Source of the DNA: Eledone cirrhosa
Taxonomy: Eukaryota
Direction of reading: 5' to 3'
DNA: 64,000 nucleotides
NCBI GenBank assembly: GCA_964016885.1
Contig: OZ024740.1
Span: 370,016,001 to 370,080,000, forward strand
Shown here: positions 41,464 to 60,672 of the stretch, one piece after another
How positions within the stretch are numbered: the first letter of the stretch is position 1
Layout of the letters: each line of letters begins with the position of its first letter
Made by a program: the position numbers and the translations under genes
The notes under the pieces: model-generated
Told to the model about the DNA's origin: nothing
The model's database searches: none
What the model saw: only the letters and a program-made list of their open reading frames with translations

Positions 41464-41970
41464 TGAAATTGGGCTGCGCTTTCTGGCAACCAAGCCACTC
41501 GCCGTAAGCTACCAATCACACTCTTTCTGACTTGACCACTGCCACCTCACGGTTCTCAGCCATTTTGAATTCGTGTTTGGCGAGTTTGTCCCCTGAAGAG
41601 TTCGAAACTCGAGATTTATCCTTCATAGGATATCTCAAAATGAGAACGAAACCCAGTGGGTCGGGATTTAGGAATTTAGTCCCGGTATGTATATAAGCAT
41701 TTCTAACTTTTATTTTATACCTAATTGTGTATGGCTGAGCGTATATTTAATTAATTTCCACGTGCTGTTGAAATGTTGGGTAAATATTCTATAGCGGTTG
41801 GCCGCGAAGATACTGCTATCGTTTATTTATTTACTGTTTCTTCATAGGTACCTTTTAATATTATATCCTGGTCTAATTGATTTTTTGTGTGGTTAATCAT
41901 GCTAATTGGGAGAAGAAATACTGTATATATATTATCAAATGATTCTATTGACATGCTTTACTTTATAGTA
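41464..41970 (+). mobile_element. Family Z hammerhead element (candidate retrozyme), copy 1
   Basis: Aligns with 60160-60672. HHR at 41588-41667. Confidence 0.8.
41588..41667 (+). ncRNA. Type I hammerhead with long stem II insertion
   Basis: GUCCC-CUGAAGA-GUUC-(40 nt)-GAAC-GAAA-CCC-AGU-GGG-UC-GGGAU. Predicted cleavage after 41662. Confidence 0.85.
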
Positions 41971-42072
41971 TATATATATATATATATATATATATATATA
42001 TATTTATATATATATATATATATATATATATATATATATTTATATATATATATATATATATATATATATATA

Positions 42073-42568
42073 TAAAGTAAGTCCATAGAATCATTAGATA
42101 AAATATATACAGTATTTCTTCTCCCAATCAGCATAAGTCAACCACAAAAAAAATCATTTGAACGAGGCTATAAGTTTAAAATATTCTTTTGAACAGACAA
42201 TAGATAAATGATACAACTTCTTATCGCGACTTATAGCTAACAAAAATTTACCTAGTATTTTTCTAATAGCCTGTAGAAATTGATTAGACATATAGTTAAC
42301 CATACATAATTAGATACAAAATCAAAGTTAGAAGAAAAAATGTACATAAACTTTACCAAAATCATCAAAATATCTCTATCCCCCGCGGTTTCATTCCATT
42401 TTTAGATATATCCGATCTTGGATAAATCAACGAGGTTTGGAAATCATCAGGAGATAACTCAATTAGACAAAGATTTTTTTTACATGATCCCCGCCAGAAA
42501 CGAATTCAAAATGGCTAAGAATCATCACGTGGCTCAAGTGGTCAAGGCAGAAAGTTTGTGATTGGTTA
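42073..42568 (-). mobile_element. Family Z copy 2 (diverged), HHR at about 42371-42456
   Basis: UAUCUC-CUGAUGA-UUUCCA...UGGAAU-GAAA-CC...UA-GAGAUA. Confidence 0.75.
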
Positions 42569-42922
42569 TATATATATATATATATATATATATATATATA
42601 TATATATATATATATATATATATATATATATATAAACAAATAACGAAACGAAATTAAATTTCGTTTCGCTTCTAACTCACTTTTGTATGACTGACGCTTA
42701 AACAATTAAGTTAAAGTGTACATCTACATATGTATACGGAAGTACTAGTATGCATATAAATACACACATGTATACATATGTACATGTACCGAGTTTTCAC
42801 TAGACACTTTACAGTGAGTGTCCAGCTAGTCTGTATGTAAACAAACAGACGAACCGGGTTTTAAAGTCATACGAGTTTTCAAGGAAACACACTTCCTCTA
42901 TTCTCCAGAGAGCCAGACAGGA

Positions 42923-42965
42923 ATATTGGACTAGTTTCGATGTTATTACATCTCATCAGCAATAT
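42923..42965 (-). ncRNA. Canonical minimal type I hammerhead ribozyme
   Basis: AUAUUG-CUGAUGA-GAUGU-AAUA-ACAUC-GAAA-CUAG-UC-CAAUAU. Stem I extends over 42901-42993. Confidence 0.92.
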
Positions 42966-43392
42966 ATACCTATCTTCCGGCTTCTCTGGAGAATTGTAAA
43001 AGCATATATCGTTATATGCTTTTTCTATGAAAATCAGTAGTGGGCAGACTAATTTGCATAGAACGTGAGTCATTGTACGCGCCGGTTCAGCGGAAACGAT
43101 AAAAACAAATAACGAAACGAAATTAAATTTCGTTTCGCTTCTAACTCACTTTTGTATGACTGACGCTTAAACAATTAAGTTAAAGTGTACATCTACATAT
43201 GTATGCGGAAGTACTAGTATGCATATAAATACACACATGTATACATATGTACATGTACCGAGTTTTTCACTAGACACTTTACAGTGAGTGTCCAGCTAGT
43301 CTGTATGTAAACAAACAGACGAACCGGGTTTTAAAGTCATACGAGTTTTCAAAGAAACACACTTCCTCTATTCTCCAGAGAGCCAGACAGGA

Positions 43393-43435
43393 ATATTGGA
43401 CTAGTTTCGATGTTATTACATCTCATCAGCAATAT
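43393..43435 (-). ncRNA. Canonical minimal type I hammerhead ribozyme (second unit)
   Basis: Identical core to 42923-42965, 470 nt away. Confidence 0.92.
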
Positions 43436-43649
43436 ATACCTATCTTTCTGCTTCTCTGGAGAATTGTAAAAGCACATATTAATTTCTTGTTAAAGTGTTT
43501 GTTGCATTCTTGGATGATGTACTTTTCTCTTCGTGTATAATGTTTAGGTATTCTAATTTTTCTCTTGGTGTGGTGATCTCAGTTATTTCTTGTATTAGGT
43601 TACGCTTATGTTTTTCTTGATGACTTAATTCTCTGTAAATCTTCTTTTT

Positions 43650-57787: not shown

Positions 57788-57838
57788 AGTTTCAGAAGAT
57801 CCCGTTAAGGGTGAAAGCAGCGATTCTTTGCTTAAACT
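57788..57838 (+). ncRNA. Hammerhead-fold motif with CAGAAGA core (also 48762-48812 and 54440-54490)
   Basis: AGUUU-CAGAAGA-U-CCC-GUUAA-GGG-U-GAAA-GCA..UGC-UU-AAACU. Confidence 0.68.
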
Positions 57839-57980
57839 TTAATCGGTTATTTTAATAAATTAATATATATATATATATATATATACATATATATATATAT
57901 ATATATATATATATATATATATATATATATATATATATATATATATATATATATATATATATATATATATATATATATAT

Positions 57981-58188
57981 ATTAGAAAGTGAACAACACA
58001 ATATATAACTACACCATTACCAAAGGTTTCTGAATCCTAGACAATCTTAATATACGTCTGGATCGGTCATCAGGCAGAGATGGTAATGGAGTAGTTATAT
58101 ATTGTGTTTTTCACTTTCTAATTAAATAGGTGTGTTCTATACACTGAGCACTCCATTTTCCTTTGCTTTTTCTTCGGAATTACCTAAT
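57981..58188. mobile_element. Fold-back PLE-type remnant with hammerhead core
   Basis: Arms 57981-58022 / 58081-58121. Minus strand CUGAUGA..GAUCCAGAC/GUCUAGGAUU..GAAA-CC-UUU-GG-UA. Stem I is poor. Confidence 0.6.
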
Positions 58189-58718
58189 ATATATTTATAT
58201 ATGTATATATATATATATATGTATATATATATACACGAAGATATGTGATGTTGAAGTACATTTCTATAGGTGTGTGCCAATTCACTTTAGGCCCGAATAG
58301 ATAGCAGTAGGAAATTCTTATTGCAAGATGCAGCAACCTTACCTTGAACTATGAACATTATACTCTTTCTGATGAAGCGCAATAGTTTACGTAATGCTTG
58401 CGATTGAGCATAGGATTATGCATTTAACGCTCATAGACTGATATTGTACAGAAACATAGGTTAAGGAACGAACTCTAAATATTTTTGTTGTTTTTTAGCC
58501 TTTACGTCTTACCTATTCATTTGTTATTCTGGGTAATATACCTTTACTATTATATATATATATATATATATATATATATATATATATATACAATAGTAAA
58601 GGATATATTCATATATATATATATATATAACATATAAACCAAATTAGAATTTCATTTCTCACTTTCACACCGCGTTACATAAACGAATTTATGAGTTTTG
58701 TATCGAGTATTATTATTA

Positions 58719-59890
58719 TCTGTATATATATAAAATTAAGTATGTGTGTGTGTGTCTGTGGGTCTGTGTATTACCTATAGGGGCCTACATCTTACGACAA
58801 ATATTCATGAAAGTTTACAGTATCATAGATTAGTCATTGGTGAGTGTTTTCTATGTATCAACGTATCCGTTTTTTTTACGAGGTCATTCTGCAGATAAAG
58901 ATCGATAGTGGGGTATCGAAAAATAAGATTTTTGGCTCTAGCTCCCACATTTTAAATCAAAATAGAATTTATCATTGCACATCCAGTAATGGCTTTATAT
59001 TTTGCATGTGTTGTTCAGGGACGGCGTGTCAGCCGCTTAAATATTCAAAAATACCACTTTTAGACTCAAATTTCGGCTCTAACTCCCACATTAATCAATC
59101 TACTTTGTTCAAAATTCACACTATGCTAGATCTGATTATGTCACACCTTAAAGTGGCTTTACATTTTGGAATTTTTGTTCAGAAACGGCGTGGCAGCCGC
59201 TTAAATATTCGAAAATACCACCTTTTCGCTCAAATTTCCGCCTTTTCGGTTCTAGCTCCCACATTTTTCAACCGATTTCGTTCAAATTCGAAACTTCGGC
59301 TCCACCTCACATATAAATCAATTTATTTGGTTCAACTTTTATACTACGATAGAACCTATCATTAGCTCCCACATTTTTCAACCGATTTCGTTCAAATTCG
59401 AAACTTCGGCTCCACGGTAACACATAAATCAATTTTGGTTCAACTTTTATACTACGATAGAACCTATCATTAGCTCCCACATTTTTCAACCGATTTCGTT
59501 CAAATTCGAAACTTCGGCTCCACGGTAACACATAAATCAATTTATTTGGTTCAACTTTTATACTACGATAGAACCTATCATTGCACATCTTATAGATGGT
59601 CAGAGGCAAAACGATGGCCACTGGCGTCGTCTGAGCTTTTAGTTGTGTATTTGAGTATTCATTGGTTTCCAATCAAGTAGCGTGTGGAAATTTAGCTTAG
59701 TGTTAGAGGTCATTACCTCCCTTCCCCAGCATGCCCCTTCGTCAGTCACCCGCGTTTCTCACCACCCTCCCCCGAATGGCCTGTGTGTGGCCATAAATGA
59801 GTCATCGAGAAGCAGTCGCTAAAATCAACACCTTTTCATCAAAGCAGATATTAGTTTACCTACCCAGGCAACGGTGGGTGCTGCTGCTTG
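58719..59890 (+). mobile_element. Non-autonomous Helitron-like element with three ~109-bp internal tandem repeats (59253-59582)
   Basis: A|TC start followed by TATATAAAA and a (GT)/GTCT tract. 3' TACCCAGGCAACGGTGGGTG hairpin, then CTTG|T. Confidence 0.65.
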
Positions 59891-59982
59891 TCATTAATAA
59901 TATTGTTCGATATAAATCTCAGAAATTCCCCGCCCCCATATATATATATATATATATATATATATATATATATATATATATA

Positions 59983-60672
59983 ATTCTATGGACATTCTTT
60001 ATAGTATATCTGATTATTTAATTTATTAATTCATCATTGAGCCACATCGTGAATGGTTGCCAAAACATATATATCCGTGACTTTGTCTAGTTTGTGTATA
60101 TGTAAATCTTTATATTTGATAATCTCCCATAAGGTTGAGATGCAATTTGCGCATTATTGGGCTGTACATTCTAGCAATCAGCCCACTCGCCGTGAGGCAC
60201 CAATCACGTTCTTTCTGACTTGACTCCTGCCACGTCACAGTTCTTAGCCCTTTTGAATTCGTTTCTGGTGATGATCATTTAAGAAAACCTTTGTCCAAGT
60301 GAGTTTGTTTCCTGATGAGTTCGAAGCTCGAGAATTTATCCTTGATAGGATATTTCCGAAAGCTAACGAAACCCTAAGGGTAGAAACGCATTCGTGATAT
60401 GTGTATATGCATTTTTTCACTAACTTTAATTTTATACCTAATTGTGTATGGTTGACAGTATATTTAATTGATTTCTACGTGCTATTGAAATGTTGGGTAA
60501 ATATTCTATAGCGGTTCATCGCAAATAGATTGCTGTCGTTTATTTATCTACTATTTCTTCATAGGTGCTTTATAGCCTGGTTTAATTGTTATTTTGTGTG
60601 GTTGATTATGCTCATTGGGAGAGGAAATTTTGTATATTTATTATCAAATGATTCTATGGACATACTATATAG
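59983..60672 (+). mobile_element. Family Z complete 668-nt monomer with terminal redundancy; HHR at 60307-60387
   Basis: ATTCTATGGACAT..T.TATAGTATAT at 59983 and 60651. HHR reads GUUUC-CUGAUGA-GUU...AAC-GAAA-CCC-UAA-GGG-UA-GAAAC. Confidence 0.82.

Follow-up and report, generated by a model that had tools for sequence, protein, structure and literature searches.

A likely non-autonomous Penelope-like element of Eledone cirrhosa whose hammerhead ribozyme is predicted to be braced by a pseudoknot

The 64,000-nucleotide (nt) stretch of the Eledone cirrhosa genome analysed here (GenBank assembly GCA_964016885.1, contig OZ024740.1, positions 370,016,001 to 370,080,000 of the forward strand; henceforth the window, numbered from its first letter) contains four copies, A to D, of a repeat that we call family Z, each carrying a hammerhead ribozyme motif. 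The copies, a further fragment and the parts of the hammerheads lie as follows.

41359..41391, + strand: 33-nt 3′-end fragment of subfamily B type, running into (TA)n
41465..41971, + strand: copy A, subfamily A, 5′-truncated, ending at fixed 3′ end 1 in (TA)n; 88% identical to the real full copy L033
41582..41667, + strand: hammerhead of copy A, predicted cut 41662/41663
41588-41592/41663-41667, + strand: stem I of that hammerhead; stem II 41600-41603/41644-41647; core 41593-41599
41582-41586 (5′ strand) and 41606-41610 (3′ strand), + strand: predicted pseudoknot of copy A; distal hairpin 41611-41636
42066..42566, − strand: copy B, subfamily B, 5′-truncated; 92% identical to L068
42371..42460, − strand: hammerhead of copy B, core 42450-42444, predicted cut 42377/42376
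52902..53337, − strand: main arm of copy C, a two-armed insertion of subfamily C, ending at fixed 3′ end 1; 98% identical to L090
53193..53277, − strand: hammerhead of copy C, core 53266-53260, predicted cut 53199/53198
53330..53506, + strand: inverted second arm of copy C; it spans the unit junction and stops at fixed 3′ end 2 within (TA)n
59965..60677, + strand: copy D, subfamily D, a full unit with period 668 in this copy and (TA)n on both sides
60301..60387, + strand: hammerhead of copy D, core 60312-60318, predicted cut 60382/60383
60301-60305 and 60325-60329, + strand: predicted pseudoknot strands of copy D

All four motifs stand where the original prediction, made from the sequence of the window, had placed them, and with the stem I and II sequences that it quoted; the positions 42371 and 53193 that it gave for the two minus-strand copies mark, to be exact, the lowest coordinate reached by the 3′ strand of stem I. 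In each motif 48–51 nt separate CUGA(U/A)GA from GAAA; stem I, a UH cut site and a short stem III complete it. Copies A and B meet tail to tail with one (TA)n between them. A U.U at the base of stem II in copy B is shared by its family; one change breaks the palindromic stem III of copy C, the second stem III pair is broken in copies B and C but intact in their families, and stem II, 5 bp in family D, has a point change in copy D. The end motif of the copy at 59983-60677 recurs at a distance of 668 nt, as had been noticed. The stretch 53381-53480, which had been matched to the start of this copy, belongs to the inverted second arm of copy C (53330-53506), which crosses a unit junction.

Searches of the 3.0-Gb genome with each window copy returned separate sets of relatives, 85–98% identical, and because each query retrieved its own set the four copies represent subfamilies, A to D. 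The single family first proposed comprises four subfamilies (68–85% alike) rather than one lineage. Likewise, the 668-nt monomer describes one copy, which has deletions: periods in real full copies are 689 (A), 700 (B), 656 (C) and 683 (D), and the family Z unit overall is 620–760 nt, non-coding and arranged head to tail. The best-scoring copies, a set biased to close copies, differ by a median of 2.1–3.2% from their subfamily majority. A motif descriptor, light on sequence but fixing the core and part of stem III, gave 3,108 matches genome-wide against 13 for the reversed pattern. Among 87 loci fetched from its first 100 matches, 81 resemble A–D over long stretches (the six non-Z loci were dropped); together with the A–D loci they form 22 clusters at 90% identity, 15 of them with at least two members, which puts the number of subfamilies, as judged from these sequences, at about 15–22. 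As 4 of 40 evenly spaced 10-kb genome stretches held a Z piece, total insertions should be of the order of ten thousand or more. The homology searches were score-ranked, with 40 of about 3,500–4,300 candidates scored, and so favour common short forms. At G000:C3:89.5-90.3 Mb, one set of Z insertions recurs several times through segmental duplication.

Every copy that reaches past the unit start shows the unit's own 3′ end upstream, and the terminal repeat of copies is a 20–27-nt overlap of the permuted unit. Tandem arrays of 2–3.5 units occur, although most copies are monomers or less; one array of three identical units (L333) is a local duplication. The longest stop-free sense frame spans 57–73 codons and no open reading frame (ORF) is common to the subfamilies. 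Neither a match below E 0.67 between the unit and six Penelope-like element (PLE) proteins of the window nor any sequence likeness between the unit and the window's coding PLEs was found. Unit junctions, arrays, and ORF and PLE checks across loci therefore agree with the initial description of a head-to-tail, ORF-less, non-autonomous unit. The unit contains no tRNA gene, and a tRNA origin, which we considered, is unsupported by that check. Whole-unit folding is weakly favoured (z −2.8 to −5.2, from 12 mononucleotide shuffles). The most conserved part across A–D, window 60156-60260 (unit positions about 170–280, 60–160 nt upstream of the ribozyme), holds a 19-nt invariant run and a CCAAT box and is a candidate internal promoter. 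Regarding expression, no RNA run was listed for the unit among the runs searched; three contig runs of one sample hold relatives but gave no phased variants and are uninformative on this point. In viral contigs, the pattern had 35 matches, and none continues as a Z hammerhead.

The motif has the features of a type I hammerhead: a core of CUGANGA, GAAA and NUH, three helices, and an open stem I. In the majority forms of A, A2, B, C and D, 48/50 stem I and II cells are paired, and in an alignment of 25 hand-picked representatives 92.3% of cells are paired compared with 33–51% for slid partners. Double changes occur in 8 of the 10 stem I/II pairs, which none of 500 shuffles equalled (relatedness being left out of the shuffles), and RNAalifold recovers the same helices unaided. 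Covariation thus persists in the larger alignment, in line with the original proposal of compensatory changes, and supports selection on the predicted fold in the Z lineages. The segment between the core halves opens with a 4–5-bp proximal stem, continues into an asymmetric internal loop whose 3′ side is rich in A, and is capped by a distal hairpin, which folds in 25/25 representatives although its sequence differs. What had been seen as a ~40-nt hairpin insertion in stem II does contain a hairpin, but it is an internal loop capped by that hairpin, and a long stem II is found elsewhere too, measuring 26–36 nt in other hammerhead families of the genome. Stem III has 4 bp in A and D and is a minimal palindrome in C and in lineage c13; such a minimal palindromic stem III is expected to need a dimer (PMC4209133).

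Rfam hammerhead models lack a long stem II. The Z motifs were not reported among the 150 of 170 window matches listed, and a search with 171 bases at E up to 10 gave no Z hammerhead match. The model HH9 did match another window family, at 42635-43479 (−), a second retrozyme-like family with two units about 470 nt apart and 98% alike; both contain a canonical HH9-like hammerhead (E 5e-5 and 8e-5, neither reaching the gathering score). Other hammerhead-like families in the window, at 6719(−), 61100(−), 25467(+), 23981(−), 37665(+), 38319(+), 38183(−) and 45586(+), have long simple stem II hairpins and a palindromic stem III, a long stem II being common in this genome. Elsewhere, L051, L104, L121, L123, L128 and L162 form a hammerhead family in which stem II is short, with U.U at the base, and stem III is long.

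The original prediction overlooked three features of Z: the pseudoknot, two fixed 3′ ends and junctions at the cut site. The pseudoknot was proposed from A–D alone, where GAGUU just 5′ of stem I is complementary to the 5′ strand of the stem II internal loop, and was then tested on lineages found later, pairs being counted by anchoring on the motif because the alignment is out of register there. Across positions 1–5, 118/125 cells are paired versus 24–61 when the strands are slid. Position 4 is paired in 138/151 motifs and in 23/25 representatives (shuffle p 7e-5, relatedness being ignored); most clusters have U-A there, one clade has C-G, another (the sister of B) has G-C, and D has U.G. In the predicted pairing, then, position 4 has undergone two independent compensatory changes in newly found lineages. 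At position 5, an A-U change occurs in 7 motifs. The spacing of the two strands from the core is constant, 15–16 nt in sum, and the distal hairpin would close the internal loop that presents the pseudoknot strand. In a separate hammerhead family (L372, L375, L394) with 52–54 nt between the core halves and the same palindromic stem III, a GAAGAA 5′ flank faces a UUCUUC-like loop strand, possibly an analogous pseudoknot.

Among 135 distinct 3′ ends, 116 lie at site 1, about 300 nt past the cut, 17 at site 2, 95–125 nt further on, and 2 elsewhere; the flank is TA-rich at 123 of them. An opposed arm is present at the 5′ end in 39 rows, of which 30 (27 distinct insertions after removal of three mirror duplicates) use one site per arm, as the two-armed copy C of the window does with its one fixed 3′ end per arm; the remaining 9 have irregular or cut-off outer ends, and in none of the 39 do both arms use the same site. 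Z insertions thus bear the marks of PLE insertions: fixed 3′ ends with an optional tail, 5′ truncation, partial tandems, an inverted 5′ copy and a (TA)n target. A tail between two ends and an inverted copy are described for PLEs (PMC8557442), and, by analogy, the arm and site pattern fits the two internal reverse transcriptase (RT) starts and two-strand extension of the anole PLE (PMC11167929).

To examine 5′ junctions in A and D, we placed an anchor immediately downstream of the cut and searched the genome for anchors preceded, within about 32 nt, by a TA run. All 57 junction loci were fetched and one local duplicate removed. In 18 of the remaining 56 (11 D, 7 A) the 5′ junction is the first base after the predicted cut, mostly without microhomology; 11 junctions lie upstream, over about 20 positions, and 27 downstream, with 0–1 junctions at each of +1 and +2. 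A conservative binomial p for the cut-site peak is 5e-9. A control anchor used in the same design yielded 6 loci at 5 positions and no peak, anchor match rates being comparable (37 and 30 of 58). The peak suggests that cleaved RNA was reverse-transcribed into the genome, probably by enzymes of the Penelope type.

As to the source of such enzymes, Z and PLE protein matches occur together in 52 of 345 fetched Z loci (some redundant; 11 query proteins), with TA or similar repeats lying between the members of nearly all pairs. In two insertions that have TA at both outer ends, Z is fused to Hydra-like RT sequence and no TA intervenes: in L423 the two are joined back to back, and in L425-L426 a Z piece that begins at the cut is followed by a partial tandem from the window's 54656 family, with no Z remainder in the next 7.1 kb. 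These fusions are a lead, not proof, for a Hydra-clade PLE as helper. The candidate helper ORF, 54656-56305, has RWR and DKT motifs, with CxCX5C in its sister copy, and these are close to the motifs listed for Hydra, a clade of (TA)n-targeting PLEs; a protein search with the window's Hydra-like ORF returned 529 mostly unnamed relatives and no clade label, and Pfam named RVT_1 and GIY-YIG in 2/6 window proteins. No sequence common to the Z unit and Hydra-like PLEs was found. Two further candidates were set aside: L038/L424 resembles a Z-PLE chimera but also fits twin priming beside an older RT fragment, and L037 is a neighbour within one TA tract. The window holds two Hydra-like PLE families of two copies each, with broken frames (45798-48832 and 53973-57860, +; 28679-30941 and 61817-63503, −), and, at 44945-45385 (+), a 3′ fragment (GIY-YIG) from a further PLE family, with its own hammerhead behind it; relatives (77–96%) adjoin many Z copies in the same TA tracts. 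A long near-perfect fold-back at 53520-53800, also present beside p2271-like RT in L037, is likely an inverted PLE end, and 38949-40923 is a degenerate tandem array with a period near 70 nt.

Taken together, these genomic sequences lead us to read Z, with a probability of roughly 0.78, as a likely non-autonomous PLE, that is, a retrozyme without long terminal repeats (non-LTR retrozyme), with a type I hammerhead that a 4–5-bp pseudoknot is predicted to brace and that likely cleaved the element's RNA in germ-line cells. Transcription of tandem or read-through copies would give multi-unit RNA, part of which the hammerhead would cut once per unit, as the junctions suggest. The reverse transcriptase-endonuclease of a PLE, probably one from the Hydra clade, would then nick (TA)n and begin cDNA synthesis at two internal positions, one per DNA strand, that lie about 300 and 390–430 nt past the cut, matching the fixed ends observed. 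If its template was cut and linear, the enzyme would run off at the cleavage point, leaving a 300-nt copy that lacks the ribozyme core, the pattern seen in A and D; an uncut or circular template would let it read through and yield the full and multi-unit copies that may sustain the lineage. A bolder extension strikes us as possible but doubtful: a new natural hammerhead architecture, joining a stem II internal loop to the 5′ tail of stem I, would have been retuned in some twenty lineages, with stem III strength setting the frequency of cutting, cut RNA giving dead-end run-off copies, only uncut or re-circularised RNA propagating, and Hydra-clade PLEs as the helper, so that the genome would record in vivo cleavage rates for each variant.

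Several observations weigh against this reading. In c13, the commonest lineage in the sample, the cut is the start point of just 1 of 12 distinct insertions (16 rows less four segmental duplicates). In C, within the first 100 of 119 rows, junctions are blurred by ATATA microhomology, with 4/26 at +1 to +3, 18/26 at about +4 to +9 and 4/26 upstream; one idea is that the difference in the cut-site peak between A and D on the one hand and C and c13 on the other might follow stem III strength. The search pattern favours G or C junctions and TA-flanked copies, and other A and D bins are also populated (+3: 6, +5: 8, +6: 10), which we ascribe, for the downstream bins, to TA/TG microhomology at the anchor edge. 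As for the pseudoknot, positions 1–3 are nearly invariant, position 5 alone is not significant (p 0.13–0.16 in one test, 0.5–1.0 in another), position 4 is U.C in subfamily B, the 25 rows were chosen by hand and the shuffles ignore relatedness. The helper is drawn from 2 of the 52 loci that hold both Z and PLE protein matches. Finally, units of one array resemble each other only a little more than they resemble units from other loci, and so do not establish a circular template; array identity, tried as a test of circle copying versus local duplication, did not separate the two.

Among other explanations, the one that comes nearest keeps the same element but lets its ribozyme act through plain stems I–III, with the GAG and CUC blocks serving as protein or promoter sites and no pseudoknot formed. 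The near-invariance of three of the five positions and the mismatch in B speak for it, as does the invariance of 58% of all unit columns among A–D. Against this, Watson-Crick pairing at position 4 was restored by two independent double changes, a third (A-U at position 5) recurs in 7 motifs, the core spacing is kept and the geometry agrees with known stem I/II pseudoknots (PMC3088659), which makes the plain-stem explanation unlikely, if a serious contender. It is less probable still that the pile-up at the cut reflects RT stalling at the folded ribozyme on uncut RNA rather than run-off. Unprocessed RNA was the dominant substrate of the anole PLE in vitro (PMC11167929), and several arms do end 10–20 nt upstream of the cut, inside the fold; but an enzyme moving 3′ to 5′ would meet the far end of stem I, 5–6 nt before the cut, and the peak is a single base at exactly the predicted bond, in two subfamilies with differing flanks, with next to nothing at +1 and +2.

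Two further alternatives concern the element itself. The units could be the pseudo-LTRs (pLTRs) of a coding PLE and the ORF-less copies its truncated by-products, as would suit the PLE-type insertion marks (PMC8557442) and the bias of score-ranked searches to common short forms. However, copies that pass the unit start continue into the unit's own 3′ end, arrays of 2–3.5 units exist, a closed unit has been retained in about 20 lineages, and the mark of an autonomous PLE, an RT plus GIY-YIG ORF between pLTRs, is missing from the Z unit: a pLTR-behind-ORF layout was found in 0 of the 345 fetched Z loci. We consider this explanation, which the original prediction had named as its own alternative, very improbable. 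Least credible is a satellite spread by DNA-level duplication with the ribozyme a decayed look-alike. The local duplication in L333 and the segmental duplicates are of the kind it predicts, but dispersed copies, fixed 3′ and ragged 5′ ends, inverted arms and covarying stems largely refute it. A non-autonomous PLE with a pseudoknot-braced hammerhead remains our preferred reading.

The non-LTR retrozyme class, its PLE link and its size are already known (PMC7229834; bioRxiv 10.64898/2026.07.22.740005). Like metazoan members of that class, Z consists of tandem or dispersed ORF-less units of low GC content with one type I hammerhead, and shares with them coexisting PLEs, a short palindromic helix III in many lineages, and the size range: 668 nt, originally thought large, lies inside the 51–972 bp (mean 650) published for ray-finned fish (bioRxiv 10.64898/2026.07.22.740005). 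Some retrozymes, such as axolotl HHR_Amex2, have U.U at the stem II base, as do some Z. Z differs in having 48–51 nt with an internal loop, distal hairpin and predicted pseudoknot where those retrozymes have a short loop 2, and in occurring mostly as monomers and short arrays, its membership of the class being judged from genome sequence. With endonuclease-containing (EN+) PLEs of the Hydra clade (PMC8557442, PMC11167929) it shares 5′ truncation, partial tandems, an inverted 5′ copy, an optional tail between two fixed ends, (TA)n targets and a type I hammerhead, but it has no ORF and its tail is 95–125 nt versus the published 30–40 bp.

As for the ribozyme, a pseudoknot between stems I and II is already known from other hammerheads, which need it to cleave fast (PMC3088659); there, as predicted for Z, a 4–6-bp pairing holds the stems parallel, in all three types and about 40% of cases. 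In Z, by contrast, the partner strand would lie in an internal loop closed by a 25–30-nt hairpin, an arrangement that we did not find in the hammerhead literature searched, figures and supplements aside. The minimal hammerheads of PLEs (PMC4209133) and the viral ‘long helix II’ hammerheads (PMC13725137) are also type I with an enlarged helix II, the former with a palindromic helix III as well, but their helix II is 6–8 bp with no recognised tertiary contact. Rfam models and short-loop descriptors miss the Z fold, so such ribozymes may be undercounted, and the Z lineages, which differ naturally in stem III and in the predicted pseudoknot, form a series open to direct assay. Within the literature searched, this predicted architecture with its covariation support is new, as are cut ends recorded in genomic copies, none being described in the accessible parts of the two non-LTR retrozyme papers. 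The role of the hammerhead in the Penelope life cycle has been called unclear (PMC8557442); in the one PLE that has been reconstituted, the ribozyme could be dispensed with and the cut was not an end point of any RNA reads (PMC11167929); for retrozymes, circles have been proposed as templates (PMC7229834). The junctions of Z at the predicted bond indicate that linear cut RNA also served as a template in vivo.

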